A DNA stretch of 64,000 nt, from NCBI GenBank assembly GCA_041658745.1, contig JBAZZP010000003.1, forward strand, positions 83,423 to 147,422. The letters are read 5' to 3'. Made by a program: the position numbers and the translations under genes. The DNA is from Candidatus Margulisiibacteriota bacterium. GTDB taxonomy: Bacteria; Margulisbacteria; WOR-1; O2-12-FULL-45-9. Numbering within the stretch: the first letter of the stretch is position 1; every line of letters starts with the position of its first letter. Positions 5,142 through 34,344 of this stretch are shown here, in pieces. Under the pieces are notes generated by a model, which saw only the letters and a program-made list of their open reading frames with translations, was not told the DNA's origin and did no database searches.

Positions 5142-5207
5142 TTTCGACACCATTCCTCGTAATTTACCCGCAAATAGCTTGGCAATAACATTGCTGGGTT
5201 GCTAAGC

Positions 5208-7837: not shown

Positions 7838-9203
7838 TTACAAATCAACAACTTCTCTTGCCATTGGAACCGTAATTGATTTTGTTGGCAACGTCCTAGC
7901 AAAACGATTCATGGCATCAAGTCTTCCATGACATATAACGTACTTTTGAGCATCTGTGTTTCTTAAAAAATGATCAAGGGGCCCGGAATAGGGATGATCA
8001 AATCCAGGAGGCATTTTAAAAGCCGCTCCTGCCTGTTCGGCGGTCATTCCTAATAGTTTAGCAATTTCAGGATCCAAACAAGTTTTGGGGGGGGAGGAGA
8101 AGCACTCCGCCATCAGCAGCAATCTCTCTAACAAATCTGGTTAACTGAAAAGTGTTTTGGGAAACCCCTGTAAAATTTCGTGTCCTCGTTAAGAATATGG
8201 CTCCTCTATAGTCTCTAGGGTTAAAATTTTTACCGGCGGGTTGCATGGAACTAAAATATTCTCTAAGTTCGGAGCTTTTTCTCCCAAATTTTGCTTTATA
8301 TTCTGGCGTAAAATAGCTGAAATATCTTAGCATTACACGCATCAATTGGTCTGTAAAAAGCTCATGACAGGTATCATTGTCAGTTCTGCCAACACGCTCA
8401 TGATCAAAACAAATAACCGGTTTGGTTGGAAAATCGCTATTTTTTGATCGCATCAAACCAATACAGTGCAAAACAAACTCAAAAGCAAGCCCCCCATAAT
8501 CAATATCAACTAGCACATTCCTCCCACCTGTCAGAGCCTGTTGTAATGATTTAGTTATCAGCCTTAATTCATTAAAATAATCTGGCTCGGGAACCCAAAG
8601 AAGGCTTGCCTCGGAGATAATAGCACGAGCACTGCGCTGTTCATCTGGCAAGTTAAAGGGAGGAAAGACTTTTCTCGCTCGATCTGACCAGTCACCAGTA
8701 AAAACGATCTTCCCGCCGGGATCATCAATCGCTATAGCCGCTGATCCCAGCATATGTCCCGCCGGGAATAAAGTAACAACTGCTGCTTCATGACGCCTTC
8801 CAACACAAGGCAGTTGCAGAATATATTCTTTTCCATAATCAAGCTCAATAATTCTATTTGATTGTAAAAGGGCTCGATCGGCAGCATTTTTACTAAAAAA
8901 TAGAGCTATTAAACGACGTGTTGCCGGAGTACATACTACCTGAGCCTCCCTGTTGGCTCGCATAGCCGAAGCCAACCCCCCCGCATGATCTGGATGGGCG
9001 TGTGAAACAAAAATCAAACGACAGTTTGAGAGAGAAGGAAATTCTTGTCTTTCTAAAGGGGTTCCGGGGTCAAGAAGATACCTATTCCCTCCACTTTCCA
9101 AAACATGCGTATTCCTTGCTGCCCCACTATGCAAACTTCCCCTGTAAGAAACAAAGGACATTGGTCTCTGTTTAACAATTGGTTTTATTCTTGGTGGTAC
9201 CAT
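7838..9203 (-). pseudogene. MBL-fold beta-CASP-like hydrolase split by a frameshift in a C8 (coding-strand) homopolymer
   Basis: ORFs 8067..9203 (VSHAHPDHAGG, FPAGHMLGS, FTGDWS) and 7838..8134 (..YVICHGRLDAM) overlap at the G8 run 8087-8094. Removing one base joins ..LLLPP to KTCLDPEIAKLL.. into one reading frame of ~455 aa. Confidence 0.6.
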
Positions 9204-9214
9204 ATCAGTAAAGT

Positions 9215-9241
9215 ATCATGAATAAATAGCAATAATTTCAC
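9215..9241 (-). promoter_or_regulatory. ECF-sigma-like promoter box GTGAAAT-N16-TGAT, 11 nt before the beta-CASP MBL ATG
   Basis: The coding strand reads AGTGAAAT-tattgctatttattca-TGAT-actttactgat-ATG. There is no SD. Confidence 0.5.
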
Positions 9242-9315
9242 TTTTTCAATTGCAGATTAATTGAATACAGGCTAAAATAGTCTCGGATAGAAGGGGCATT
9301 CTTTTAGGAGAAATT

Positions 9316-9762
9316 ATGTCAGACATAATGGTTGTAGCTAATTTATTAATTTCTTTTCTGCTGGGGGGAGCAATTGGCTGGCTGAGAGAAATAGAAGGCA
9401 AAACTGCTGGGCTCAGAACTCACATTTTGGTCGCGGTTGGTTCCACGCTATTTACCATTCTATCCATGGAAATGATGAATATTTCCGGCAGCTCAGATCC
9501 CGGCAGATTAACCGCGGGAATAGTTACCGGAATTGGTTTTATTGGCGCTGGCTGTATTATTCAAGCTGGGGGCGGAGTAAAAGGAATAACCACGGCTGCA
9601 TCAATCTGGGTTGTGTCTGCGATCGGCGTTGCAGCCGGAATGGGTTATTATGTCGCCGCTGTTGCCACCACCGTTATTTCACTTTTCACCATTCAAGTCC
9701 TCGGCCATGCCGAACATCGGGTAATGAAAAGCAAAGAAAGGGAAGAAGCAAAAAAAGGATAA
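9316..9762 (+). CDS. MgtC/SapB family membrane protein
   Basis: 148 aa. Motif LLGGAIGWLREIEGKTAGLRTHILVAVGS. SD TAGGAG lies upstream. Confidence 0.8.
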   Translation: MSDIMVVANLLISFLLGGAIGWLREIEGKTAGLRTHILVAVGSTLFTILSMEMMNISGSSDPGRLTAGIVTGIGFIGAGCIIQAGGGVKGITTAASIWVVSAIGVAAGMGYYVAAVATTVISLFTIQVLGHAEHRVMKSKEREEAKKG

Positions 9763-18629: not shown

Positions 18630-20552
18630 TTAGCGGAAATCGGTGTCAAATTCTATCCCGTTTGCGTGATTCTCTTTGATATAAGTATAAATATCAATTA
18701 AGTTTTGTCGCAAAGCAGCGCGATCGGGAGTTTGACTATAAATAACTCTAAAAACACGGTTTAAAGATTCGCTCCTAAACGGTTCATTTTGTAAAGATTC
18801 TTCCATAGCTGAAGGATTAAGGGCAAATAAAGCAATGATTCTTCGGTAAGTGGCTGGAAATATTGTATAAGCCATCCCCGCGGATGCAATCCCCTCATCC
18901 GGTGCATCTTTTGGATGCCCTGCCCATGGATAATAATCCAGCAATACCGAGTCATCCAACAAATCCCACGTACCTAAACTTCGTCCTGCATAATAAAGAT
19001 TTAAATACTTTTCTTTCGTCGGGGTATAAGGGTGTTCACTGTATGGGGTATAACTGTAATCATAAAATCCGTGGCTTAGTTCGTGAGCAACAACCGTAGC
19101 CAAGACAAGCTCAAATTCCTCTGGCAAGGGAGAAAGTGGCACGCGACTGTCAATGCCTATTGCCGGACCCAATCCTACGCCACTCCCACCAAAAGGAGTT
19201 GGCATACAATCATCAATTTTAAAATAAATACCATTACGTTTGAATATCACTAATCTATCGGCCAAATTAGAAATAACCGTTGAATTAGCTAAGGGAATGG
19301 CACCTCCCAAAAAGATAAAGCTCTTTCCTTTTAAGTTAATGGTTTGTGAAGATTGCCCCTCAACGACATTAATATCCTGACATTCCTTCCCAACTGGAGG
19401 TTCCAAAGACACCCCAGCCAGGGATGATCTCCAGTTGTCACCTTGCGCCAATAAATCGATAAAACGCAGTGTTAGTTCTGTTGCCTTGGCCACAGCTTCC
19501 ATGTTTGGAACCATTATGTCTGCGGCAGTATGAGCCACAAGATTGCCAGGATAAGCACTACCGGCCGGTCCTGGTCCGCCATTTTCTGAAATCATTACTG
19601 ATGGAATACCCTTAAGATAAAATTGTCCCTGATCGCTGCTCATGGCAGCTAAAGGATCATTGATTAAATCGGTAACAACTCCAGCGCTATCGTTAACCTG
19701 ATGCAATATGTCCATGAGCCGCCCAGAAATTCCCTTTCCACCCAGAACCAGGCGATCGGTCAAGGGATTCCCTCCCAACGTATCCAGATTGATAACTCCC
19801 AAAATAGAAGGATCATTTTGCTCTAGCACAGCTGTATAAGCCTTGCTGCCAAGTTGGCCATATTCTTCACCATCAAAGGCAATCAGCTCAATGTCAAAGG
19901 GGAGCTGGTAATTCCGCAAATTCATTGCGATTTCAAGCAATGCGGCAACACCCGAAGCATTGTCATCCGCTCCGGGCGCAAATTCATTGTTTATCCCCTC
20001 TCCAATAGAATCAAAGTGAGCACAAATTATTAATCTTAGGCCTAAAGCTTCCCTCCCTGGAATTCTGGCAATCACATTGTGTAATTCACCAATATTTATA
20101 CCAGGGAGATCATACTTCAGAGACAGCCTGGCAGAATCGTCAATTGGAATCGTCACAGATTCTACTGTAGCCCTACCACCTAAGGCTCGATACAAAGTAT
20201 CATAAATAAATTGTCTTGCAGCTTCATTCCCTTCCGTAAAAATACGTCTTGGCATCAATGACAAAATACGAATGCTTTCTGCAATCCTCTGCCGATCAAC
20301 CTGGCAATGGACAACACTCCCGGCAACCCTTCCTCCCCCACAACCTCGCCGTAGCAATCTCCTTCTGGAAACGCCAACATTGTTGTCTCTTGGTTTTGGG
20401 TTTGCGTGTGATTGATTCATAGGTTGATTTTGTGTGACTAATTCTTGATTTGAATTATTAGTTTCCATGGTAGAAAAAGGGCTAATTGTCTTTAGGCAAC
20501 TGAAAAAGTTGGCACTATTGCTGTTTAAACAATATTGTATTTTATCTGTCAT
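18630..20552 (-). CDS. M28-family aminopeptidase domain fused to a C-terminal HExxH metalloprotease-like domain
   Basis: The M28 part shows ICAHFDS, GADDNASGVAALLEIA and FDGEEYGQLGS. The C-terminal third contains VAHELSHGF. The N-terminus is Q/N-rich and has no clear signal peptide. Confidence 0.65.
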   Translation of the reverse strand: MTDKIQYCLNSNSANFFSCLKTISPFSTMETNNSNQELVTQNQPMNQSHANPKPRDNNVGVSRRRLLRRGCGGGRVAGSVVHCQVDRQRIAESIRILSLMPRRIFTEGNEAARQFIYDTLYRALGGRATVESVTIPIDDSARLSLKYDLPGINIGELHNVIARIPGREALGLRLIICAHFDSIGEGINNEFAPGADDNASGVAALLEIAMNLRNYQLPFDIELIAFDGEEYGQLGSKAYTAVLEQNDPSILGVINLDTLGGNPLTDRLVLGGKGISGRLMDILHQVNDSAGVVTDLINDPLAAMSSDQGQFYLKGIPSVMISENGGPGPAGSAYPGNLVAHTAADIMVPNMEAVAKATELTLRFIDLLAQGDNWRSSLAGVSLEPPVGKECQDINVVEGQSSQTINLKGKSFIFLGGAIPLANSTVISNLADRLVIFKRNGIYFKIDDCMPTPFGGSGVGLGPAIGIDSRVPLSPLPEEFELVLATVVAHELSHGFYDYSYTPYSEHPYTPTKEKYLNLYYAGRSLGTWDLLDDSVLLDYYPWAGHPKDAPDEGIASAGMAYTIFPATYRRIIALFALNPSAMEESLQNEPFRSESLNRVFRVIYSQTPDRAALRQNLIDIYTYIKENHANGIEFDTDFR

Positions 20553-20810: not shown

Positions 20811-22073
20811 CTACATAAACAATCTTTGGCTGCGTTTTTGGCGATGGAAAGTAATCGCAAAACGATGGGCTTCATCACGGATCCTTTGCAGTAGCATTAG
20901 CGCAGCAGAATGTTTTTCCAAAACTAGTGAATTTCTTTTATTTGGCATAAATATTTCCTCTTCCCGCTTGGCAAGGCTAATCAACGGTAAATCTAATCTG
21001 TTTGCTACGGATAGAGCTTTTAGCGCCGCTCCAAGCTGAGGCTTTCCCCCATCAATTAAGATTAAATCAGGCCAAGGAAGCTTTTTAGTTAGAGAATTAG
21101 AGTACCGCCGTTTAACAATTTCATAAATAGCAGCGGCATCGTTTGGATCAGGTCCAACTGTTTTAAGATTAAAACGGCGATAATCCCTTTTTAAAGGAAT
21201 TCCTCCCTGAAAAACCACCATAGATCCGACCATGTTGGATCCTTGAATATTTGAAACATCAAAGGCTTCAATCCGCATAGGAATTTTTGAAAGCCCTAAT
21301 GCTTTTTGTAGATCGTTTAATACGCTTACTCGCTGGCCTCCAGCTGGCCTTTCCAAATCTTTTGCTTCTAGCAACTTTTCCAATTGTTCCACTCGATCCC
21401 TTAACATACCTGCCCGCTCATAGTTTTGCTCTTGTGCTGCCTTTTTCATTTCATCATTGAGTTTAACAATTGCTTTATCACTCTTTCCTTCCAACAGCAG
21501 AATAATGCTCTGTATTAACTGCCTGTAGGCGGCATGACTTATCTGTTGCAAACATGGAGCAGCACAACTGCCAATCCGGCCAAACAAACAAGGTTGCGTT
21601 CTTGGTTTCAATGTCACTTCTTTGCACCATCTGACCGGATAAGTTTTTTTAATTAGCCCCAAAATAGTTTTTACCATCCCGCCACGATAGGGCCCAAAAT
21701 AACGAGCACCATCACTTTCTTTTCGACGAACCATAAAAACCCGCGGCCATTCTTCCTTAATAGTTATTTTGATATAGGGATAAGTTTTATCATCTTTTAA
21801 AACAATGTTATAGCGTGGTTGATATTTTTTGATTAGCTTATTTTCTAATATCAAGGCATCCATTTCGGAGGCAGTAAGGATCCAATCCAAATCATAAAGA
21901 CGGGTTAATAAAATAGCGGTTTTTAAATCATTGCCCTTTTTAAAATAGGAGAAAACTCGTTTGCGCAAAGACTTGGCTTTGCCAACATATATAATGTCAC
22001 CATTTTGGTTTTTAAAAAGATAAACACCCGCCGTTTCCGGCAAGGATTTAATTTTATCCTTCAAGGAAAACAT
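20811..22073 (-). CDS. uvrC: compact UvrC-like excinuclease subunit (GIY-YIG + UVR + RNase H-like endonuclease domain, no C-terminal HhH2)
   Basis: Motifs GVYLFKNQNGDIIYVGKAKSLRKRV, the Cys cluster, UVR motif YERAGMLRDRVEQLE, RIEAFDVSNIQGS and DEAHRFAITFHR. It ends at 420 aa. Confidence 0.75.
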   Translation of the reverse strand: MFSLKDKIKSLPETAGVYLFKNQNGDIIYVGKAKSLRKRVFSYFKKGNDLKTAILLTRLYDLDWILTASEMDALILENKLIKKYQPRYNIVLKDDKTYPYIKITIKEEWPRVFMVRRKESDGARYFGPYRGGMVKTILGLIKKTYPVRWCKEVTLKPRTQPCLFGRIGSCAAPCLQQISHAAYRQLIQSIILLLEGKSDKAIVKLNDEMKKAAQEQNYERAGMLRDRVEQLEKLLEAKDLERPAGGQRVSVLNDLQKALGLSKIPMRIEAFDVSNIQGSNMVGSMVVFQGGIPLKRDYRRFNLKTVGPDPNDAAAIYEIVKRRYSNSLTKKLPWPDLILIDGGKPQLGAALKALSVANRLDLPLISLAKREEEIFMPNKRNSLVLEKHSAALMLLQRIRDEAHRFAITFHRQKRSQRLFM

Positions 22074-22804: not shown

Positions 22805-23269
22805 TTAAAAAGGTATTTCGTCAATTTCTTTACTCTCGTCCCCTTCAATGGCCATTACGGGCCCTTTCTTCCCTTCCTCTCCCTCATGGGCCTTCACGGG
22901 CCCTTTGTCCCCCTCTTCTCTTTTTCCCAACATTTGGATATTATCCGCGATAACTTCGACCATGCTTCTTTTTTCGCCATCTCGTCCCACAAAATTACTG
23001 ACCTGCAGCCGGCCTTCTACCGCCACCGGTCGGCCTTTTTTAAGGTATTCGCCCACAATTTCGGCGGTTCTTCTCCATGCAACAATATTTATAAAATCCA
23101 CATCCTGGTTGGCAGATGAAGAATCATGCCCCGTAGCTTCTTGGGATTCTTCCTTGCGTTTAAACCGGTTTACCGCAACCGTAAAACGACAGACAGGAAT
23201 CCCCGAAGTGGTATAGCGAAGCTCCGGATCCCTCGTTAAATTCCCAATTATAAAAACTTTATTATACAT
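22805..23269 (-). CDS. ssb: single-stranded DNA-binding protein (paralogue 2, with internal 13-aa tandem duplication)
   Basis: OB fold MYNKVFIIGNLTRDPELRYT..CRFTVAVNR..FINIVAWR, with the acidic tip DEIPF. Confidence 0.85.
   Translation of the reverse strand: MYNKVFIIGNLTRDPELRYTTSGIPVCRFTVAVNRFKRKEESQEATGHDSSSANQDVDFINIVAWRRTAEIVGEYLKKGRPVAVEGRLQVSNFVGRDGEKRSMVEVIADNIQMLGKREEGDKGPVKAHEGEEGKKGPVMAIEGDESKEIDEIPF
22841..22918. repeat. 2 x 39-nt tandem duplication inside ssb paralogue 2
   Basis: It encodes EEGDKGPVKAHEG / EEGKKGPVMAIEG. An exact 14-mer, ccctcatgggcctt (22881-22894), recurs intergenically at 23298-23311. Confidence 0.7.
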
Positions 23270-23314: not shown

Positions 23315-23737
23315 CTAAAAAGGCAAATCGTTATCTAAGTCAGCGTCATCCACCACATCTTCGGCGGCAGCAACACTGGCAAGCGTCGGTTTAGCAGCGT
23401 GTTGGTGATCAGCTCCCAGCAAAAAAACATCTTTCGCTACGACTTCAGTTACCCATTTCCGTTTCCCGCCTTGGTCATCAAAAGAGCGGACCTGAATTCG
23501 TCCTTCAACTAAGACCATTTGGCCGGATTTTAATTTTGCACTGCCTTCGGCAACATTGCGCCAGGCAATAATATCAATTAAATCAGAACCAGATTGGATC
23601 GGCGTTGGTTGTCCTAAAGAAGCCCGCCTCTCAACCAGCAATTTAAATTTGGTCATGGCCAAACCGTCCATCGTAGCACGCGCCTCGGCATCTGTAGCCA
23701 GTTTACCTGACAAAATAATACGGTTTAAACTAGCCAA
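23315..23737 (-). CDS. ssb: single-stranded DNA-binding protein (paralogue 1)
   Basis: OB fold NRIILSGKLATDAE..DIIAWRNVAE..VEGRIQVRSF, with the acidic tip DNDLPF. Confidence 0.85.
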   Translation of the reverse strand: MASLNRIILSGKLATDAEARATMDGLAMTKFKLLVERRASLGQPTPIQSGSDLIDIIAWRNVAEGSAKLKSGQMVLVEGRIQVRSFDDQGGKRKWVTEVVAKDVFLLGADHQHAAKPTLASVAAAEDVVDDADLDNDLPF

Positions 23738-24092
23738 TGGCCTTTACTTCCTCTTTTGGCTGTGGGACGCCTTGAATTTCGGCAAGAGCGGCTTCTTTTT
23801 CTTCTGCACGGTAGACCGAATAGCGAAAAACGTCTTCGGTAACTTTTAAGAAATATTGCAATTCGGCTGGTAAAGTGGAAGGAGCATCAAAGAATAGCAT
23901 TACATAGTAAACATATTGCATTTTTTGGGCTTTCTTAAAAAGATTAGGCAAGCGCTTACTTCCCCACTTTTCGGTCTTTTTCATCTCGCCACCCAAACTT
24001 TTGATCTTATCTTCAATCTTTTTAATCAATAAATCAATTTTTTCTTCGCCCAGCACCGGATCAAATATCAACAACGATTCATACGCATTCAA
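23730..24092 (-). CDS. rpsF: 30S ribosomal protein S6
   Basis: MNAYESLLIFDP..EKWGSKRL, in the rpsF-ssb-rpsR-rplI context. Confidence 0.9.
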   Translation of the reverse strand: MNAYESLLIFDPVLGEEKIDLLIKKIEDKIKSLGGEMKKTEKWGSKRLPNLFKKAQKMQYVYYVMLFFDAPSTLPAELQYFLKVTEDVFRYSVYRAEEKEAALAEIQGVPQPKEEVKAIG

Positions 24093-24173
24093 AGTAAAAC
24101 CCTCCTTATGGCAGATGCAGAATGGTAATTATAGCATAAAAGTGGCTATTTGGGCAAATAGGATGGTCAATCA

Positions 24174-25259
24174 CTACACATTAAACTTAACAATGATCAC
24201 ATCGCCATCTTGAATGGTATAACTCTTCCCTTCAGTGCGCAGTAAGCCTTTTTCGCGAGCCTTAGCCCAAGTAACGCAGTCAATTAAATCTTGCCAATTG
24301 ATTACTTCATCCGCAATAAAGCCTCTTTCCATATCAGAATGGATTTTGCCGGCAGCTTGGGGAGCCTTCGTCCCTTTTTGTACAGTCCAAGCCCGAGATT
24401 CTTTTTCGCCCGCCGTAAAAAAAGTGATTAAATCCAACAATTCATAGCCGGTACGGATTAATTGGTGCAAAGCCGATTCTTTTACCCCCATCTCCAACAA
24501 ATAAGCCTTGGCATCTTCATCAGACAATTCAGCAATTTCAGATTCAAGTTTGGATGAAATGCTAATCACTTTGGCATTTTCAGCTTTAGCAATTTTTTCA
24601 ACAATGGCTACTTGCTCTTTACTGCCTGACTCATCAACATTGGCTACATATAATACCGGTTTTTGGGTTAGGAGTGAAAACCCGACCAATAAAGCCCTTT
24701 CGTCTTCGGTTAAATTTGACTCACGAGCCGGCTTTCCAGCCTCTAAAACACTTTTAAGCCGATTTAAGATTTCGGTTTCTTTAGCGGTTTTCTTATCCCC
24801 GCTGCGAGCCTTGGCAGCAACGGCCGATAAACGTTTTTCTACTTGCGCTAAATCAGCCAATATCAGTTCTAGATTAATAATTTCGATATCTCTTGCGGGA
24901 TCAACATTGCCTGCCACATGAATAATTTCATCATTTTCAAAGCAACGGACAACGTGGGCAATCGCGTCTACCTCGCGGATATGGGCCAAAAATTTATTGC
25001 CTAACCCCTCCCCCTCATGCGCCCCTTTGACTAACCCCGCGATATCGTAGAACTCTATATATGTAGGGACCGTCTTCTTGGAGGCAAAGAGCTGGGACAG
25101 TTTAATCAGCCGTTCATCGGGGACTTCTACTACCCCAACATTGGGATCGATCGTGCAAAAGGGATAATTGGACGCCTCGGCCTTGGCGCGGGAGAGCGCA
25201 TTAAATAAGGTGGATTTCCCAACGTTCGGCAAACCAACAATTCCTAAAGATAAAGCCAT
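24174..25259 (-). CDS. ychF: ribosome-binding ATPase YchF
   Basis: Motifs [17 protein letters not shown] and FCTIDPNVG, plus a C-terminal TGS-like region ending in [11 protein letters not shown]. Confidence 0.92.
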
Positions 25260-25292
25260 ATTTTTAGTATAACACAGACCAGTGTCTTTGAA

Positions 25293-26597
25293 CTATGTCT
25301 GGCGAATCCCAGCACCCCAACGTGCAAGTGTCGCCGTCAGGCAGACATCTAGATTAGTATTACGGATCTCTCCCAAGCCTCTTCCTTGTAGACGGTTGGC
25401 AACACAACCCCCTTGGCATATTTCTATGACATCACAGGGTTGGCAAATGGATGACGGGTATTGCAAATGGTCTTCGATGACCCGGTTTTTAAAAATCTGC
25501 CCAGTTTTCGGGTCCCCCAAAATTAAGCCATCGGTTTTTTCTCCCACTAAGGCTAGACAAAAAACAAACTTTTCTTCTGGCAGGAGAAGGGTGTAAGACT
25601 GCGGAGAATCAAGCATAGGACAAGGTCGGCGCGAAGTAAGATAGGCATTATCCTCAAGTCCTAATTGATAGCGCCAGATCCCTTTGGAATAATAATTTGG
25701 TCCAATGGTCCCCATACTAAGCAGGATCTGCAACTTTTCCTTTGGCCAATTTTTCCGAGCTTCAATCACGGACAACAAAAAGCGATCCATGGCGTCTTCC
25801 GTGAGAGGGGAAACGCCCCCTTTAGCGTTTCCAAGCGGCCGCGTTAAACGCAAAACCACTGTTTCAACTCCCAACTCAACAGCCTCCCGCGCAACTTCTT
25901 GAATTCCTTCTAAATAATCCAAATAAACCTGACTAAATATTCCCACCGAAAATGGTCGCGGATTATGGCTGCGCGAAAACTCAACCATTTCCCCAATATT
26001 TGAAGAGACAGCAGCATGGCTGTTTCTCCCATAAGCTATTTGGTGAAGGGCAGCCGGCAGATGACTAATGCGTAAATGGCGAACCGAAGATTGAGCCAAA
26101 GCCTGCAAATTTTGCTGGGTCAGTCTTCTTTCCCCATTGGTAATGGCATAGGGATCCCCTGCCAAAGTTTTAAGACGCAGCACCTGTTCCAACAGGCGAT
26201 CATTTACATTTAATTCTTTTGGATAGGCGGTAGTTAGAAAGCCTTCAGCTTGCGCGGCACGGATTCTTGCTGAGATTAAATCTTCATCAATAACTGGGCT
26301 CTCTGGTCCTTCGGGTGTCCAAAAACAAAACTCACAGCGGCGATTGCAGGGAGTATTAAGTAGTAGATCGGCCATTGGCTTTACTGGACGCTGCAACAAC
26401 CGCTCTCCATAGCGCTTAATATTCGGCATATTTGTCGCCGCTCGTGCCCGTTGACTGGCCGAGAGGCCAAGGTAAGGAGCAATCAAAGAATACTCCGCCG
26501 GCCCCAAGGTTTTTCCAGCCACAACAATGTTTCCCGATTTACGTGGTAGTAAATGAACAACCATATTATTTTTTCTCCCAACCATTAAACTCGTCAT
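25293..26597 (-). CDS. radical SAM enzyme with C-terminal SPASM-like Cys cluster and ~70-aa N-terminal extension
   Basis: CNRRCEFC (Cx3Cx2C) lies at about residue 84. The C-terminus has CPMLD.., FCLAL.. and CQPCDVIEICQGGCVANR (CxxCx5Cx3C). Confidence 0.75.
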   Translation of the reverse strand: MTSLMVGRKNNMVVHLLPRKSGNIVVAGKTLGPAEYSLIAPYLGLSASQRARAATNMPNIKRYGERLLQRPVKPMADLLLNTPCNRRCEFCFWTPEGPESPVIDEDLISARIRAAQAEGFLTTAYPKELNVNDRLLEQVLRLKTLAGDPYAITNGERRLTQQNLQALAQSSVRHLRISHLPAALHQIAYGRNSHAAVSSNIGEMVEFSRSHNPRPFSVGIFSQVYLDYLEGIQEVAREAVELGVETVVLRLTRPLGNAKGGVSPLTEDAMDRFLLSVIEARKNWPKEKLQILLSMGTIGPNYYSKGIWRYQLGLEDNAYLTSRRPCPMLDSPQSYTLLLPEEKFVFCLALVGEKTDGLILGDPKTGQIFKNRVIEDHLQYPSSICQPCDVIEICQGGCVANRLQGRGLGEIRNTNLDVCLTATLARWGAGIRQT

Positions 26598-26604
26598 CTA
26601 GTCT

Positions 26605-26631
26605 ATCTGAGTAAATAAAAAATAATTTCAC
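26605..26631 (-). promoter_or_regulatory. ECF-sigma-like promoter box GTGAAAT-N16-AGAT, 7 nt before the radical-SAM ATG
   Basis: The coding strand reads AGTGAAAT-tattttttatttactc-AGAT-agactag-ATG. There is no SD. Confidence 0.55.
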
Positions 26632-26661
26632 TAAATAAATTAGGCAAAAGAAAAAATATTC

Positions 26662-26687
26662 TGAAATTATCCTAACTTCCTCTCGAG
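26662..26687 (+). promoter_or_regulatory. near-match to the same promoter box (TGAAAT-N16-CGAG), 8 nt before the MBL ATG
   Basis: Reads cTGAAAT-tatcctaacttcctct-CGAG-attaagtt-ATG. There is no SD. Confidence 0.35.
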
Positions 26688-26695
26688 ATTAAGTT

Positions 26696-27646
26696 ATGAT
26701 TTCGCGCATATCAAAACATGCAGCAAAACCTACACATCAAAAAAATGCTGCTCCAATGCGACCAGGCTTCGCTAAGCTCGAGAAGGTCGGCACCTTTCAA
26801 GAGTGGTTCGAGGTTTACAGGCTCACGCCGGATACATATGCAATTTATGAACCGTATCAATTCCAGGAAGCGATCTGCTATCTTGCTCTGGGCACATCGA
26901 AGGCACTGCTCATAGACACCGGTAACGGCATTGGCAACATTCGAGATGTTGCCTCCACATTAACAGGTTTGCCCATCTCAGTTGTCCTAACTCACGAGCA
27001 CGCGGATCACTACGGCGGCGCGCATTTATTTGAGCACGTTGCCGTTTACAATTTTCAGGCAGCGCTTAAGGAGCTGCGACAAGGGGTTCCGAACGCATCC
27101 GCATGCTGCTCCATCACTGGGAATAACTTATGGGGACCGCTTCCTAATGGGGTTGATCCCGCGACTTGGTCTGTGCTGCCGGTCAATCCCGATTTGCTGC
27201 TCGAAGAGGGCTCAATAGTTGATTTGGGTGGCCGTCAGCTTGAAGTGATCCACACGCCAGGGCACTCGGCTTCCGAAATCTGCCTGCTGGATAACAGCCG
27301 CCGTCTATTGTTCTCGGGAGATCATTTTTACCCCGGTCCGTTGTATTTACAATCGGCAACGGCCGACATCCTCAGCATCTTCGTGGAATCGAACAATAAA
27401 TTAGTACAACGTGTTAATGAGTACGACCATGTGCTTGGCGGTCATAACGAGCCGTGGATCGACGCCGCCGTAATTCCCCGTGTTAGCCAAGCGATGGCGA
27501 TTGTTCTCTGTGGTGGTGGCGCTTTTTCTGAAGATCAGGGAATCAGACGTTATTTCTTCGACGGGTTCGATATCCTGCTTCGCGCTGCGAGCATCAAGAG
27601 TTACATGGTAAAACATCTGCCTGTTAGTGAAAAAAAGATGGATTGA
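26696..27646 (+). CDS. MBL-fold metallo-hydrolase
   Basis: Motifs THEHADHYGG (HxHxDH), HTPGHS and FSGDH. Spot counts suggest it is GC-richer than most of the window. Confidence 0.8.
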   Translation: MISRISKHAAKPTHQKNAAPMRPGFAKLEKVGTFQEWFEVYRLTPDTYAIYEPYQFQEAICYLALGTSKALLIDTGNGIGNIRDVASTLTGLPISVVLTHEHADHYGGAHLFEHVAVYNFQAALKELRQGVPNASACCSITGNNLWGPLPNGVDPATWSVLPVNPDLLLEEGSIVDLGGRQLEVIHTPGHSASEICLLDNSRRLLFSGDHFYPGPLYLQSATADILSIFVESNNKLVQRVNEYDHVLGGHNEPWIDAAVIPRVSQAMAIVLCGGGAFSEDQGIRRYFFDGFDILLRAASIKSYMVKHLPVSEKKMD

Positions 27647-27692
27647 TCTAGCTTAATCCTGGGAAAGAAATAAATCTGGAATTTTAAATCGC

Positions 27693-27719
27693 GTGAAATT
27701 TATTAGAAATATAGAAGAA
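27693..27719 (+). promoter_or_regulatory. near-match promoter box GTGAAAT-N16-AGAA upstream of the FGE-like gene
   Basis: The 13-mer gtgaaatttatta is identical to 28806-28818. It is followed by a 44-nt leader with a TAGGAG SD. Confidence 0.3.
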
Positions 27720-27763
27720 AACAAAGTGAAAGATACAACGCAGAATACTTAGGAGATTAGAAC

Positions 27764-28804
27764 ATGGTTAAAACCTCTGTTGCAGGAAATGTTGGCGGGG
27801 ACAGTTTGGTTAGAGCCCTGCTATGTTCTCAAGCTTCTATAAGAGGGGACCAAAAAAGAAGCCGAAGTTGTGGCATAAGGATATTTTCACAATACTTAGG
27901 GAGAAACTCCGCAAGACAAGAGGCATGGGTGAAAAACACCCCCCTTTCACCGGAAGTGGTTTTTGCTCGTGCTAGTTTAGATAGTGCTTGGCTAAAACAA
28001 GCTGGGCAATGGCTGGAAACCTCAACTGACCCAAAACAACGGGCGGCCATGTTAAAAAGACTTGGGGCTGAAAAGCTTGAACCAGAAAATCTTTACCCCC
28101 TTCCCGAAATTGAGTTACCCATGGTGCCCCACATTCCAACAGGGCCATTCACGATGGGCAGTCAGCAATTTGATGACGCTAAACCTTTGAGAGAAATAAT
28201 CCTTGATCCTTTTAGTATAAGTATTTTCCCAGTAACCAGAGCCCAATATTTGATAGGAATGCAGCAAGCAGGTTTAATCACACCGGAATATTGGAAGCAA
28301 ACAGACGGAGAATTGATTTGCCCTTCCCATCCGGTTACCGGTGTAACTTGGGAACAGGCCAACGCGTTTGCAGAGTGGCTTGGCCGAAGATTACCTACCG
28401 AAGCTGAATGGGAATTCTCCGCTAGAGGTTATGATGAAAAACTCTATCCATGGGGAAACATATTTGATCCTTCACGGGCGGCCTTTCACCAACGGGGAAC
28501 CAGCCCCGTTGATGCCTACCCAACCGGTGTATCTTGGAATGGGATTTTTGGACTAGCTGGTAATATTTGTGAGTGGTGCGCTGATTGGTATGCTTCATAT
28601 GACCCGTCCGCATTACACAACCCTCGCGGCCCAGAAGAAGGAAGCATGCGAGTTTTACGTGGTGGGTCACATTTCTATGATGAGCCCGAATTATTGCGTA
28701 GTGATCGTCGCAACAAGCATTATCCAAGCATCGTCGGCAATAGTTATGGTTTTCGCGTAGCGGAAGGGGGCATTGTTCCCCCAAATGGCTTAGTTAAAAA
28801 ATAG
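27764..28804 (+). CDS. FGE-sulfatase domain protein (SUMF1/EgtB/PvdO family) with ~115-aa N-terminal extension
   Basis: Motifs GPFTMGS, HPVTGVTWEQANAFAEWLGRRLPTEAEWEFSARG, GNICEWCADWY and RVLRGGSHF. Confidence 0.8.
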   Translation: MVKTSVAGNVGGDSLVRALLCSQASIRGDQKRSRSCGIRIFSQYLGRNSARQEAWVKNTPLSPEVVFARASLDSAWLKQAGQWLETSTDPKQRAAMLKRLGAEKLEPENLYPLPEIELPMVPHIPTGPFTMGSQQFDDAKPLREIILDPFSISIFPVTRAQYLIGMQQAGLITPEYWKQTDGELICPSHPVTGVTWEQANAFAEWLGRRLPTEAEWEFSARGYDEKLYPWGNIFDPSRAAFHQRGTSPVDAYPTGVSWNGIFGLAGNICEWCADWYASYDPSALHNPRGPEEGSMRVLRGGSHFYDEPELLRSDRRNKHYPSIVGNSYGFRVAEGGIVPPNGLVKK

Positions 28805-28805
28805 A

Positions 28806-28832
28806 GTGAAATTTATTAAGAGAGGGGCTGAT
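28806..28832 (+). promoter_or_regulatory. ECF-sigma-like promoter box GTGAAAT-N16-TGAT, 8 nt before the M20 peptidase ATG
   Basis: Reads AGTGAAAT-ttattaagagaggggc-TGAT-ataaaggc-ATG. Confidence 0.55.
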
Positions 28833-28840
28833 ATAAAGGC

Positions 28841-30463
28841 ATGAACAAAGTAACGACTCAAGGCACTGCCGCTCAAATCAGGCAGCTATCAGCATTAACT
28901 GCCCGGCTGGTAAAAACGGGGAGCATTAGTCCCTCTCAAGGAGAAAATAGGGTCGCTAAACTAATTGTTAGAACCATGCAACGCGGAGGATTTTCTATCG
29001 CTGATCCGCTAACAAGCGATGTCCTTCTATCCGCCAGCACCGGCTTAATTCCACTGCCCGACGGAAGGGCAAATGCCTTTGCCTTCCTGCCCGCCTTAGA
29101 AAGAACCGATAAAACATTATTACTATTTGGCCACATGGATACTGTTGGGATAGATGATTTTGGCCAGCTAAAAGGTGTGGCAAACGATCCCGTAAAATTA
29201 AGAAAGGCTCTCATAGAAGAAGGAAGCGAAGCTGAGGCCATTAAGGACTTACTAACTGGGAACTGGATGTGCGGACGTGGGTCATTGGATATGAAGAGCG
29301 GTCTCGCCATTGAAATGACAACCTTAATTAATCTTCGCAGTAATCCTTCCAATGGGAATATTCTTTTTATGGGAATGCCCGACGAAGAAAACGATTCGGC
29401 CGGTATGCTGGGCGCTGTCCCATTTTTAAAACATTTTGCCGAATTACACCAGCTCAACCTAATGGGAGCCATTAATGCCGACTATACTACCGAAAGATTT
29501 CCAGGAGATAGCAACCGCTATTTGTATTTGGGAACAGTTGGTAAACTTTTACCAACTTTTTTAGTCATTGGCAGTACAACCCACGTGGGAGAGATTTTTA
29601 ACGGGATCAACCCTTCATTAATCCTTGCCCAGCTAGCTGCTCAAATGGAAACTAATCCGGCCTTTTGCGATACAATGGAAGGAGAAACGACCCTTCCCCC
29701 CACTGCATTAAAGTTTTCCGACCTAAAAGCAGGTTATAATGTGCAAACTCCGCTCTCTGCCTGGGCATATTTTAATTTATTCACCCATTCAATGACTCCG
29801 GAAAACGCCATGCAGCATATTTTGTCTATCGCTCGGGAAGCAGCACATAGGTCCCAACAAATATTGCGGGCAAGAACCAGGGATTTTAATGTGCGGACTG
29901 GCAGCAACCATCCCGATACCCAAATTAACATTTCTGTTTTGCCTTTTGACGAATTAGCTACTGGGCTTACAATTGATTCTTCGGCTGCTGCAATAGCTAC
30001 CGATCCACGGGATAAAAGCCGACTAATTGTTGAAGATTTATGGAGAAGGTCGGGAAGATCGCTTGGTAGACATGAGGCGGTGATTATCCCATTTTTGTCT
30101 CCACCTTACTATCCACATGGACATGTTTCGAAGGAAGAATCGGCCGCTTCCTCTTTTATTTCAGCAGCAACAGCTAGTGCAAAACGGGCCGGATTAGCCG
30201 TCAGGAAATTTTATCCGTATATTTCGGATGCCAGCTTTCTGCGGGCGCCCATGACCGGAGCAGACATGACCAGTCTATTGCCTTTATGGGAAAAGGGCTA
30301 TCGTCTTCCCATCGAAGACATTCGTGCATTAAATTTACCCGTAATTAATTTAGGACCTTGGGGAAAGGGGGCGCATCAGAGAATCGAAAGAATTGAAACC
30401 AGTTATTCTTTTGGAAGGCTTCCACAAATTATGGAAGATGTTATCCGTAATACCTTTAGATAA
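28841..30463 (+). CDS. M20-family metallopeptidase/amidohydrolase, RocB-like (long form)
   Basis: 540 aa. Motifs LLLFGHMDTVGIDDFG, GRGSLDMKSG and MPDEENDSAGM. The size and N-terminal block resemble the arginine-utilisation protein RocB. Confidence 0.7.
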   Translation: MNKVTTQGTAAQIRQLSALTARLVKTGSISPSQGENRVAKLIVRTMQRGGFSIADPLTSDVLLSASTGLIPLPDGRANAFAFLPALERTDKTLLLFGHMDTVGIDDFGQLKGVANDPVKLRKALIEEGSEAEAIKDLLTGNWMCGRGSLDMKSGLAIEMTTLINLRSNPSNGNILFMGMPDEENDSAGMLGAVPFLKHFAELHQLNLMGAINADYTTERFPGDSNRYLYLGTVGKLLPTFLVIGSTTHVGEIFNGINPSLILAQLAAQMETNPAFCDTMEGETTLPPTALKFSDLKAGYNVQTPLSAWAYFNLFTHSMTPENAMQHILSIAREAAHRSQQILRARTRDFNVRTGSNHPDTQINISVLPFDELATGLTIDSSAAAIATDPRDKSRLIVEDLWRRSGRSLGRHEAVIIPFLSPPYYPHGHVSKEESAASSFISAATASAKRAGLAVRKFYPYISDASFLRAPMTGADMTSLLPLWEKGYRLPIEDIRALNLPVINLGPWGKGAHQRIERIETSYSFGRLPQIMEDVIRNTFR

Positions 30464-30484
30464 AAAAACAAGGAGGAAAAGAAA

Positions 30485-31171
30485 ATGGCAGTATTAAGTA
30501 TTGGTTCAATCCACGTGCAAAAATTATACAGAGGAATGAGGACTCCTGAAAGCACAATGAAAATTGGGGGGGAACGCTTGGCCCACATCCTAGGGGTTAG
30601 GCCGGGAACAGCTTCTTTCGGGAGAATTGCTTTCGGCAATCAAGAATTAGATCTCAGGGAAATAGTAAACTTGGCTGCTCCTGCCGACATAGCCGTAAAT
30701 GGCAGGGAAGAGATTGACGCGGCAAAAGCACAAGCAATTTTAGCTGCTAGAGTAACTGGCAACTGGGAAACGGCCAATGGATTGCTTGGAACTAATTTGC
30801 ACGCAAGCCGCACGATAAGAAGATCGCTAGCTTATACTCTTTTGGAAGAAGGAGTAGCAGCCTTTAACCGTTTAAGAGAATCCTTAAGTGAAGCAACTGT
30901 TAATCTGCGCGGCGTCGAAATGCCCGAGATTGACCTTTCTGGCGCTACCCTTTCTGGTGCAGAATTAGCGTTTGCCAATTTGTCTAGGACACGTTTCTCG
31001 AGTAAGACCAGATTAGACGGTGCAGATTTAACCGGCGCAAACCTAGCTGGGGCAGATCTATCAAATGCAGATTTGTCAACGGCGCTTGTTGCAGAGGCGA
31101 CCTATTCTAGCGCTACTCGATTTCCAGCAAATTTCGATCCTGCAAATCTTGGAATGATAAAAATAGGATAA
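30485..31171 (+). CDS. pentapeptide-repeat protein (repeats only in the C-terminal ~80 aa)
   Basis: LSGATLSGAELAFANLSRTRFSSKTRLDGADLTGANLAGADLSNADLS. AAGGAGG SD lies upstream. Confidence 0.8.
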   Translation: MAVLSIGSIHVQKLYRGMRTPESTMKIGGERLAHILGVRPGTASFGRIAFGNQELDLREIVNLAAPADIAVNGREEIDAAKAQAILAARVTGNWETANGLLGTNLHASRTIRRSLAYTLLEEGVAAFNRLRESLSEATVNLRGVEMPEIDLSGATLSGAELAFANLSRTRFSSKTRLDGADLTGANLAGADLSNADLSTALVAEATYSSATRFPANFDPANLGMIKIG

Positions 31172-31187: not shown

Positions 31188-32447
31188 ATGACAACTTTAA
31201 TCGGGACAGCGCTTAGGAATTATTCTCATCTCAAAATGGACACAATTAGAGCCTCAATTCAAGAATCAGTTGGCTCATTAAGGTCAAGATTGAGAGAAAG
31301 ACATCGAGGGACATTGGTTCAACAGGCAACAGAGGTTGCCAGAAAGGGGGCAGCTCTCAGCATTTATTGCCCAATCAACGTAGCACTTGCCCACACCGCC
31401 GCACCAAGATTGGAAGCGGTCGCTAAACCGGACTCACAGTCAAGGATTTTGTCCAGAAGGCCAATGACAATTGTAACTGTTAACTCCGGTTTTTGTGCCG
31501 GAAAATCTACCGATCCCAACCTGCAAACCCCCAACATGGTTGTAAGCAGATTGCGGGAAATGCTTTTAACTTTAGGCGACCAATGGAAATCCATTGGTAA
31601 AAATTTAAAATGGGTGCATGCCCCTACCGTATTTTACCCAAGCAAACCGATTGAATTAGCAAGGGTGGATGATCGCAATCCCAATTCGTTTAAGTATATA
31701 CGAGAAGCTGTTCTAAATTACTACTTTTCTTATTCAACAACTATTAATGGGGTGCTAGAGAGAGGATTTTCTCCATTACTCGTCGGAGGAGATCATTCTT
31801 TGGCTTTTGCGAGCGTCTCTACCGTAAGCAACCACTATTTTAGAAAAACTGGAAAAACCGCCGGATTGGTTTGGGTTGATGCCCATGGAGATATAAACAC
31901 TAGAGCTACTTCGCCGTCAGGAAATTTCCATGGCGGACCAGTTGCTGCCCTGCTTGGGATATCCAACACAGTTATGGATCTTTTCATGGAAAAACCATTA
32001 AACCCCAGAAACATCGTATATATTGCCATTAGAGATTTGGATCCAGGAGAAATTGCAACTATTGCCCGTCTTGGCATAAAAGTTTTTAGCGCCAAGGACA
32101 TTGAAAAAGATGGATTGGAATCGGTAATGCAACAAGCCAGAGCCATTGCCGGCCAAGGAACCTCTGGTATTTGTGTTTCATTTGATATTGATGGAGTTGA
32201 AGGAACCCATGTCCCCGGAACAGGAACTCCGGTTAGTGTTGGAGAAAATATGGACAAGAGGGGCCTTACTCCTCAAGAAGCCAAAGATATGGCAACCATT
32301 TTCGGGAGCTGGAGGAACCTTATTTCTTTTGACATGGTAGAAGTAAATCCCGAAATTGATCAAAAACCGGGGTTTCCAACAGTCCAACTCGCCAGTGAAA
32401 TTCTTACAAACTTTATTGTCAGCCGTAACGACACTTCCATAACATAG
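31188..32447 (+). CDS. arginase/agmatinase/formiminoglutamase-family ureohydrolase with ~90-aa N-terminal extension
   Basis: Motifs VGGDHSLA, VWVDAHGDINT and SFDIDGVEGTHVPGTGTP, so the metal ligands are intact. AAGGAGG SD lies upstream. Confidence 0.8.
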   Translation: MTTLIGTALRNYSHLKMDTIRASIQESVGSLRSRLRERHRGTLVQQATEVARKGAALSIYCPINVALAHTAAPRLEAVAKPDSQSRILSRRPMTIVTVNSGFCAGKSTDPNLQTPNMVVSRLREMLLTLGDQWKSIGKNLKWVHAPTVFYPSKPIELARVDDRNPNSFKYIREAVLNYYFSYSTTINGVLERGFSPLLVGGDHSLAFASVSTVSNHYFRKTGKTAGLVWVDAHGDINTRATSPSGNFHGGPVAALLGISNTVMDLFMEKPLNPRNIVYIAIRDLDPGEIATIARLGIKVFSAKDIEKDGLESVMQQARAIAGQGTSGICVSFDIDGVEGTHVPGTGTPVSVGENMDKRGLTPQEAKDMATIFGSWRNLISFDMVEVNPEIDQKPGFPTVQLASEILTNFIVSRNDTSIT

Positions 32448-32484
32448 CAACAATTTGGCGAATAGTCCAAATAAGGGGGAAAAC

Positions 32485-34344
32485 ATGGCAATCGATAGAG
32501 AAATGGGCCTGCAGAGATTAAGATTTATTCTGCCCGGAAGGCATACACAGCCGATGCTGGCAACCCATCCTGCTCCAAGGACGGAAGGAGTTCCAACCAT
32601 TGCCGGCTTAGGCAGTCCTTTGCGGATTGCTACCCGTCCCCCTCTCTTTAAACCTTTATTGCAGAGAGAGTTTTTTGCAGCTTTAGCCACAGCTTTCCCT
32701 GCCTACCAATTAACCCCTGAAGTAGAAAAACAGCTAGGAGTTACTTATCCAAAACTAGCCGATCATGGCGATTATGCTATCCCCGTTTTTGCTCTGTCCA
32801 AAGCGATAAGACAAGCTCCTGCAACTATCGCCGAAAAAATTGCCTCCGAAATGCGCGCCAATCCGGACATTAACCGTTATTTCGATATTAATGTGATTAA
32901 TGGTTATATTAATTTCCGCTTTAGTGATGCTTTTTTGATGGCCTCTGCCACTTCCCTAGATTCAACTTTTGGGAATAACGATACTTTGGCGGGACAAACC
33001 ATTCAGGTTGAATGGGTCTCGGCTAATCCAACCGGACCGTTACACATTGGCCATGCTCGCTGGGCGGTGATGGGAGATTTACTTTGCAAAATGCTCGAAG
33101 CCTGTGGCGCAACTGTGCAACGCGAATTTTATGTTAATGACGCCGGCGCCCAGATTGAGCGCTTTAGGAAATCCGTCCAAGCCGCCAAAGAAGGAAGCGC
33201 CATCCCGGAAGATGGCTATCATGGACAATATATCTATGAAATTGCCAAACAAGGGGGAGACCCTGTTTTGCTTATGATGGAATATCAACGTCTTTCACTG
33301 GAAGCCATCGGTGTCCATTTTGATCGTTGGTTTTCGGAAAAAACCCTCTACATTCCCGATGCAGAAGGCAGAACGATGGTAGATAAGGGCTTAGCCATTT
33401 TAGAAGCTGCCCACTTAACCTACCGCGCCGCCGAAGGAGAACAGGTTGACGAAGAAATAAACGCTCCCGTAAACAGAAAAGGACAAGCCCAAACCGGAGA
33501 AGCCTTATGGTTTCGTTCTACCCAATTTGGTGACACTAAGGACAGAGTACTCATCAAGGCAAATGGCGCTGCAACCTACTTTTTAGGAGACATTGCTTAT
33601 CACTTAGATAAAGTTGGGCGTGGCTTTGATTTCTTGTTCAATATTTTAGGGGCCGACCACGGCGGTTATGTCGCCCGTCTTTCAGCTGCGATCCAGGCTT
33701 TATCTGACGGAAAACAAGGCCACCACATAATCATTGGCCAATTAGTTAAATTACTAAAGGAAGACCCCGATTCACACCAACTAGTAGAGGCCCGCATGTC
33801 AAAACGCACCGGCGAAATGGTCTCTTTGGGAGATATAACCGAAGCTATTGGGGCAGATGCGGTACGCGTTTTTATGGGGAGCGCCGGATTTGATACCGCC
33901 GTAAATATCAATTTGGATGTTGCTACCAAAAAGTCTTCTGATAATCCAGTATTTTACATCCAGTACGCCCACGCCCGCATTGCCCAGTTATTAAAAAAAG
34001 CACAGGAACAAGGCATCACTCCAGCCACAACCATTCCTGCCGATTATAGACTAAATACCGAAGAGAGAGCGCTATTAGCAGCTATCTACAAAATACCGGA
34101 TGAAATATTAGAGGCTGCTGATGCTCAGGCCACCCAGAGGATCCTTCAATTTACGATGGATCTGGCAACCCGCTTCCATGCTTTTTATCATGCGCACCAT
34201 ATTGTTAACGAACATGATTTGCCTACCAGCCAAGCAAGATTGGCTCTCTGCCAGGCAACTGCGCAAGTTCTTAAAAACGTTTTTGCTCTTATGGGGATTT
34301 CTGCACCAGAAGAAATGGCAGCCAGAGAAGAAGCACCAGTTTAA
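32485..34344 (+). CDS. argS: arginyl-tRNA synthetase with ~55-aa N-terminal extension
   Basis: Motifs SANPTGPLHIGHAR (HIGH) and MSKRTG (KMSK-like), plus the DALR anticodon-binding region. The ATG at 32485 has a strong AAGGGGGA SD. The track start at 32455 is also possible. Confidence 0.88.
   Translation: MAIDREMGLQRLRFILPGRHTQPMLATHPAPRTEGVPTIAGLGSPLRIATRPPLFKPLLQREFFAALATAFPAYQLTPEVEKQLGVTYPKLADHGDYAIPVFALSKAIRQAPATIAEKIASEMRANPDINRYFDINVINGYINFRFSDAFLMASATSLDSTFGNNDTLAGQTIQVEWVSANPTGPLHIGHARWAVMGDLLCKMLEACGATVQREFYVNDAGAQIERFRKSVQAAKEGSAIPEDGYHGQYIYEIAKQGGDPVLLMMEYQRLSLEAIGVHFDRWFSEKTLYIPDAEGRTMVDKGLAILEAAHLTYRAAEGEQVDEEINAPVNRKGQAQTGEALWFRSTQFGDTKDRVLIKANGAATYFLGDIAYHLDKVGRGFDFLFNILGADHGGYVARLSAAIQALSDGKQGHHIIIGQLVKLLKEDPDSHQLVEARMSKRTGEMVSLGDITEAIGADAVRVFMGSAGFDTAVNINLDVATKKSSDNPVFYIQYAHARIAQLLKKAQEQGITPATTIPADYRLNTEERALLAAIYKIPDEILEAADAQATQRILQFTMDLATRFHAFYHAHHIVNEHDLPTSQARLALCQATAQVLKNVFALMGISAPEEMAAREEAPV

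Follow-up and report, generated by a model that had tools for sequence, protein, structure and literature searches.

An undescribed radical SAM/SPASM enzyme family of Candidatus Margulisiibacteriota with a predicted N-terminal hairpin motif and a recurrent lysS, LKR and SDH neighbourhood

The minus-strand gene at 25293..26564 of the window (the whole 64,000-nucleotide stretch of DNA that was analysed) almost certainly encodes an active radical SAM/SPASM enzyme of an undescribed subfamily. Enzymes of this type are commonly interpreted as peptide maturases. The new points of this study are a phylum-restricted subfamily, a new N-terminal module, and a genomic association that is metabolic instead of RiPP-related. 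The recurrent neighbours of the family are lysS together with LKR and SDH, the split genes of the saccharopine pathway, and a functional tie to lysine metabolism is tentatively proposed from them.

Gene and start codon

The open frame in the ORF list covers 25293-26597 (-), has 434 aa and reaches an upstream ATG at 26597. No ribosome-binding site was found before this first ATG in the minus-strand sequence. The ATG at 26564 (M12) is preceded by a GGGAGA Shine-Dalgarno sequence at 26574..26579 (-), which was read from the sequence and has a 9-nt spacer. The enzyme is annotated at NCBI as WC890_03265 of a Candidatus Margulisiibacteriota MAG, with 423 aa, and every homologue begins at the position equivalent to M12. 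Because the Shine-Dalgarno sequence, the NCBI call and the homologues agree, M12 is the probable true start, and the coding sequence then has 423 aa. The residue numbering of the 434-aa frame is used throughout. The sequence-only reading had put the beginning of the CX3CX2C motif at about residue 84, which holds in the 434-aa frame, but counting from M12 makes residue 73 the first of the three Cys. The flanking intergenic lengths of 33 nt and 98 nt given there are correct, and the upstream gap becomes 131 nt from M12. The dN/dS value was 0.09 against the 74%-identical homologue of locus L010, a comparison in which dS is near saturation. Therefore, the gene is judged to be functional.

Radical SAM/SPASM assignment

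The radical SAM/SPASM class, which had been proposed from the letters of the DNA, was confirmed by the motifs, the profile and the fold and is secure. The ligands of the SAM-binding [4Fe-4S] cluster are C84, C88 and C91 of the CX3CX2C motif (26325..26348, minus strand), with the aromatic F90 just ahead of the third Cys. The partial TIM-barrel core of the radical SAM domain comprises residues 73-295 (25713..26381, minus strand). Y125-P-K127-E128 sits where the GGE motif would be, and T153-N154-G155 is the ribose motif. E128 and N154 are nearly invariant across the 48-sequence alignment A2. The SPASM domain, residues 326-419 (25341..25622, minus strand), was recognised by the invariance of its Cys residues, a weak match to TIGR04085 and profile matches to CteB, PqqE and anSME through the region. 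It contains a variable insert at residues 353-376. The C-terminal Cys pattern described earlier (CPML, FCLAL and CQPCx5Cx3C) is fully present. C326 in PCPML, C347 in FCLAL and C385-x2-C388-x5-C394-x3-C398 are invariant together with the N-terminal triad in the seven-member alignment A1 and in A2, and C419 is nearly so. The seven SPASM Cys residues are predicted to hold two auxiliary [4Fe-4S] clusters, which would make three clusters in total. anSME and BtrN, which are radical SAM dehydrogenases, differ from the enzyme in having eight SPASM Cys instead of seven and in lacking the extra N-terminal domain, and the enzyme has no sulfatase context.

The Pfam search of the enzyme gave no match at E≤0.01, PF04055 included, and the same was true of the relative P0008. 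The missing PF04055 match reflects divergence and is no ground for exclusion from the radical SAM superfamily. In NCBIfam, the SPASM model TIGR04085 was matched with 23.6 bits (E 5e-5), below its 27-bit cut-off, which is passed by some relatives such as P0013 with 45.5 bits. Other matches were trivial and local, with 18 bits against 349.45 for anSME (TIGR03942) and 15.5 against 340 for PapB. None of the curated rSAM-SPASM equivalog cut-offs in NCBIfam (AhbD, NirJ, PqqE, MftC, PapB and others) was reached, so that the HMM classification gave no characterised subfamily. Assignment to a well-characterised subfamily with its substrate encoded elsewhere was the outcome named in the sequence-only reading as speaking against it. 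Since the enzyme falls in no characterised subfamily, the reading stands on this point.

A single-sequence search of the PDB with the enzyme gave a best E value of only 0.31. The profile built from A2 matched CteB (2.7e-27), PqqE (1.3e-23) and anSME (7e-20). Structure prediction by AF2 with the 48 sequences of A2 gave a pLDDT of 93 and a pTM of 0.90; this model replaced one from seven sequences, which had a pLDDT of 61 and an unusable SPASM domain. The predicted fold is similar to those of solved radical SAM enzymes and includes the partial (beta/alpha)6 TIM barrel. The best fold matches were mostly peptide- or protein-modifying enzymes, namely SuiB, ChlB, anSME, TigE, CteB and SkfB, and the sequence identity to any solved structure was about 12-16%.

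N-terminal extension

The N-terminal extension pointed out earlier is real and conserved. Residues 20-46 (26460..26540, minus strand) carry the family-specific motif KSGNIvVaGktLgPaEYsLiAPyLG, which is predicted to form a beta-hairpin and a short helix. They are the best-conserved stretch, with a mean column conservation of 0.80 versus 0.71 for CX3CX2C and 0.76 for CX2CX5CX3C. S21, G22, N23, I24, G28, P33, E35, Y36, A40, P41, L43 and G44 are invariant in A1. In the AF2 model, the hairpin strands are residues 24-26 and 29-31, followed by a four-residue helix, at a pLDDT of 93-97. The motif is missing from the alignment of the second-tier relatives described below. On the alignments, the hairpin motif is judged to be unprecedented and unique to the family. 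The helical half, residues 47-72 (26382..26459, minus strand), bears an S-x3-R-x3-A-T motif and is predicted to form helices at residues 47-55 and 60-69. It is homologous to the G-S/T-x3-R-I-x2-A-T-G-L motif of the second tier in an hhalign comparison of the N-termini only (94%, E 1e-7, 35 columns).

The suggestion that the extension could be an RRE/PqqD-like element found no support at the sequence level. Neither PqqD/RRE (PF05402) nor another model was found in the N-termini of the family in Pfam at E≤10 (four tested) or in NCBIfam at E≤1 (three tested). The canonical RRE has about 85 aa and a winged-helix fold of a three-stranded sheet and three helices with an exposed beta3 edge. The structure prediction, which had been proposed as a check, gave a short two-stranded hairpin and helices packed on the barrel, half of which is common to the wider rSAM/SPASM clade. 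The whole extension is modelled with two three-residue strands, one four-residue helix and two helices within about 50 residues, and it packs confidently onto the barrel within the single body of pTM 0.90. The modelled beta-beta-alpha-alpha-alpha order resembles a shortened winged helix, and the extension may thus be a degenerate RRE. A cap for substrate binding fits better than an RRE because there are only about 50 structured residues, the packing is of high confidence and the conservation is extreme. Judging from the model, the extension is probably a family hallmark that caps the barrel and helps to bind the substrate.

SuiB, CteB, ChlB and TigE are radical SAM/SPASM maturases that modify RiPPs and carry an RRE at the N-terminus, and the enzyme is only 12-15% identical to them. 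In contrast to theirs, its N-terminal element is shorter, contains a hairpin of two strands and is recognised by no RRE model. The enzyme also lacks an adjacent precursor in any lineage; its neighbours are metabolic enzymes and lysS.

Family size and relatives

Among 5.8 billion protein clusters, seven relatives were found by word-indexed search. Five representatives were found at E<1e-30 among 1.84 billion in the exhaustive HMM search, and one family locus was present among 185,579 GTDB species genomes. The GTDB and JGI scans added only the new locus L011, since L012 and L013 repeat known contigs. All of the named family members come from Candidatus Margulisiibacteriota MAGs. Margulisbacteria is a sister phylum of Cyanobacteria. 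As far as these searches reach, the family is undescribed, tiny and so far seen in Candidatus Margulisiibacteriota alone. Literature searches gave nothing relevant on radical SAM enzymes with saccharopine, LKR or SDH, on such enzymes in Margulisbacteria, or on the family itself.

The same 1.84-billion HMM search also gave about 30 proteins (P0011-P0040) of about 400 aa, the second tier, at E values from 1e-27 to 1e-10. They are mostly metagenome singletons in clusters of one to four sequences, with one from a Nanoarchaeota MAG, and are as rare as the family. They share with it the length, the architecture and the helical N-terminal motif ahead of CX3CX2C, but their identity to it is 20-24% and they lack the SGNI..G..P.EY..AP.LG hairpin motif. 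Most of them are recognised by Pfam Radical_SAM. No NCBIfam equivalog was reached by them; the nearest curated models, AhbD, NirJ and TIGR04053, were matched far below threshold (67-99 bits against a cut-off of 500 for AhbD). The enzyme itself matches none of the three models and has no tetrapyrrole gene context. The neighbourhoods of the second tier are not lysine-related and show no consistent partner: aminotransferases and hisS accompany the gene at L015, and L018 differs.

Genomic neighbourhood in the window

The gene ychF (24174-25259, minus strand), identified by Pfam and the ORF list, lies 33 nt downstream of the enzyme gene on the same strand, and rpsF, ssb, ssb, rpsR and rplI come after it. 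The scan for terminator-like sites on the minus strand of 24000-27000 found none; its counts were at or below the shuffled expectation and are hence uninformative. Because ychF on the same strand at 33 nt heads this string, the enzyme gene is probably co-transcribed with ychF-rpsF-ssb-ssb-rpsR-rplI. ychF is also downstream in L010, the closest relative, and this arrangement is common to the window and L010 only. ychF is a neighbour and no functional partner.

The divergent genes upstream encode an MBL-fold hydrolase (from 26696, 98 nt from the 434-aa frame), an FGE-sulfatase-domain protein, an M20 peptidase-like protein, a pentapeptide-repeat protein and an arginase-family protein, followed by argS. 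A functional link to the MBL/FGE-like/M20/pentapeptide/arginase cluster was considered and rejected. These genes, the FGE-sulfatase-domain gene 1.2 kb upstream of the enzyme gene among them, and likewise argS, occur at no other family locus, and the upstream gene of L010 is different. The sulfatase signature C/S-x-P-x-R was not found in the long ORFs of the 64-kb window.

Several other features of the window were recorded. The plus-strand genes at 26696-31171 encode the MBL-fold protein, the FGE-sulfatase-domain protein with weak SenA/EgtB-like matches far below the cut-offs, a 540-aa M20/DapE-like protein and the pentapeptide-repeat protein. The arginase-family gene at 31188-32447 (+) encodes 419 aa with an N-terminal extension of about 170 aa and ends 8 nt before argS (32455-34344, plus strand). 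Bacteria usually have a single ssb between rpsF and rpsR. Here, two SSB-like genes of 154 and 140 aa stand in tandem at 22805-23269 (-) and 23315-23737 (-), and the second of the tandem has an acidic tail rich in Glu, Gly and Lys. The 640-aa protein of 18630-20552 (-) has an M28 peptidase domain at residues 159-359 and a C-terminal region of about 280 aa with no family match. The 420-aa ORF of 20811-22073 (-), which directly adjoins the end of rplI, has a UvrC-like GIY-YIG N-terminus and falls about 180 aa short of the typical UvrC length.

Genomic neighbourhoods of relatives

The description of the enzyme as an orphan with no partner holds for its flanks in the window but not for its relatives, in which a lysS/LKR/SDH neighbourhood recurs. 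Six of the eight lineages have the radical SAM gene at most two genes away from lysS, LKR and SDH, in about five arrangements. In L001-4 (P0005), SDH is followed after a 2-nt gap by the radical SAM gene, and LKR and LysS converge on them in the order SDH -> rSAM -> <- LKR <- LysS; this LysS gene is a bona fide lysS (675 bits). SDH -> rSAM also occurs in L005/6 (P0006), where the contig then ends, and in L008 (P0003), where <- LKR follows. The order is rSAM -> LysS -> LKR -> <- second rSAM paralogue in L011 and rSAM -> LysS in L009. The radical SAM gene faces away from a PHP gene in L021 (<- rSAM, PHP ->, SDH -> LysS -> LKR ->) and lies beside <- LysS <- PhzF in L007 (rSAM ->). The substantial blocks shared between the loci in tblastx within 8-10 kb on either side are only the radical SAM gene, SDH, LKR and lysS. 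The association has therefore outlived about five different rearrangements, whereas all other synteny is gone.

Neither in the window nor in L010, the closest relative, is the enzyme gene linked to lysS, LKR or SDH, and the LKR gene of the window's MAG (WC890_05930) lies on another contig. As a counter-example, L019/L020 of Margulisbacteria have lysS-LKR-...-SDH with no radical SAM gene within 8 kb. From these gene orders, the lysS-LKR-SDH cluster would appear to be the ancestral and recurrent home of the family, and the gene in the window would have left it to stand first in the operon of ychF and the ribosomal-protein genes. Since all of the linked loci come from one phylum, they are not fully independent, and the association may have come about through inherited synteny.

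The earlier statement that no precursor peptide or sulfatase stands by the gene proved right. No conserved small ORF was found by the family members among ORFs of 15-110 aa within 2.5 kb on either side at eight loci; the cross-locus matches were frame shadows inside large genes. No lysine riboswitch or other Rfam element was found in the window and the eight loci.

Proposed function and alternative explanations

Given that the recurrent home of the family is the lysS-LKR-SDH cluster, a functional tie to lysine metabolism is a serious but tentative possibility, in which the substrate would belong to the lysine pathway and would most likely be a metabolite and less likely a protein lysine. By analogy with established radical SAM chemistry, the [4Fe-4S] cluster on CX3CX2C would cleave SAM to the 5'-deoxyadenosyl radical, and this radical would abstract a hydrogen atom from the substrate. 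The two auxiliary clusters on the seven C-terminal Cys residues would probably take an electron from the substrate radical or help to bind the substrate. Auxiliary clusters have been proposed as the electron exit in anSME and BtrN. With seven Cys instead of eight, a site on an auxiliary cluster might stay open, as in CteB. Candidate substrates would be lysine, saccharopine, 2-aminoadipate semialdehyde (AASA) and diaminopimelate (DAP), whereas a neighbouring precursor peptide is most likely not the substrate. Oxidation of lysine at C6 or oxidative decarboxylation of diaminopimelate could yield AASA, which is the substrate or product of SDH; as another option, saccharopine or AASA itself could be transformed. 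To our knowledge, the saccharopine pathway has no radical SAM step. It would go a good deal further, and we regard it as unlikely, to see in the family the first case of a radical SAM enzyme in the lysine/saccharopine pathway, performing an O2-independent step with split LKR and SDH beside lysS, for example oxidative decarboxylation or deamination of DAP, or lysine C6 oxidation, to AASA. If true, this would be a new anaerobic route by which Margulisbacteria form or consume lysine, and SPASM enzymes would gain a new reaction class on a free amino acid together with a new N-terminal module for substrate binding.

A peptide or protein maturase with its substrate encoded elsewhere, as for anSME and QhpD, would explain why the top fold matches are the RiPP and protein maturases SuiB, ChlB, anSME, TigE, CteB and SkfB and why the enzyme gene stands alone in the window. 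The N-terminus would then be a minimal, divergent recognition element, as its modelled resemblance to a shortened winged-helix RRE would allow, and the lysine neighbourhood would be inherited synteny with no functional meaning. With its seven Cys, the SPASM domain could also have an auxiliary cluster with an open site, as thioether-forming enzymes do. However, PqqD/RRE models are not matched even at E≤10, no conserved small ORF accompanies the gene at any of the eight loci, and the structured extension of about 50 residues with two three-residue strands is shorter than the RRE of about 85 aa. Moreover, a neighbourhood of enzymes and lysS has persisted through about five rearrangements while other synteny was lost. 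We hold such a maturase to be somewhat less likely than the tie to lysine metabolism.

It is improbable that the enzyme tailors a cofactor or metabolite (a tetrapyrrole, sugar or lipid) in the manner of AhbD, NirJ, BtrN or BlsE, unrelated to its neighbours. Only the second tier scores with such models, far under the cut-offs, and genes of haem, sugar or lipid pathways do not recur by the family members. AhbD/NirJ-type enzymes act on small molecules, and an oxidative decarboxylation could in principle suit an amino-acid substrate. Least probable by far is a role as an anSME, generating formylglycine on a sulfatase whose gene lies elsewhere. The FGE-sulfatase-domain gene upstream would suit such a role, but it does not co-occur with the enzyme family. 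Known anSMEs generally have no N-terminal extension, and the alignment with 4K36 starts at chain residue 12. Membership in the anSME family is effectively refuted by the HMM score of 18 bits against 349 and by the lack of a sulfatase signature in the window.

The tie to lysine metabolism, if functional, would indicate a novel anaerobic reaction there and extend the known chemistry of SPASM enzymes; otherwise, the family would be one more well-delimited orphan. Radical SAM families with no assigned role are common, but here the linkage to lysS, LKR and SDH offers a concrete lead. The alignments A1 and A2 can be used as a curated seed for the HMM libraries, which now miss the enzyme family.

Additional observations at related loci

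Two paralogues of the radical SAM family flank the lysS-LKR pair of L011 in one Margulisbacteria MAG (4516-5787, plus strand, and 9004-9540, minus strand). The second copy is truncated and is the nearest to the window protein after P0002, with 55% identity over residues 237-432. In the genome of the window, an unrelated 782-aa radical SAM protein is encoded at L014 (5053-7401, plus strand), two genes downstream of LKR. The genes between them encode a 273-aa protein with no assignment and a methyltransferase-like protein, and DapF and an aminotransferase lie beyond on the opposite strand. Conserved proteins of 251 and 232 aa with 26% identity and no Pfam or NCBIfam match are encoded downstream of LKR at L019 (11076-11831) and L021 (9584-10282), and a PHP-domain gene accompanies the lysS-LKR-SDH clusters of both loci. 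Aminoacyl-tRNA synthetase genes stand with enzyme genes in arginase-argS of the window, in LKR/SDH-lysS of related genomes, where LKR and SDH degrade or form lysine, and in aminotransferases-rSAM-hisS of L015; the pairing of a synthetase gene with an enzyme for the same amino acid may be a recurrent pattern of the phylum.
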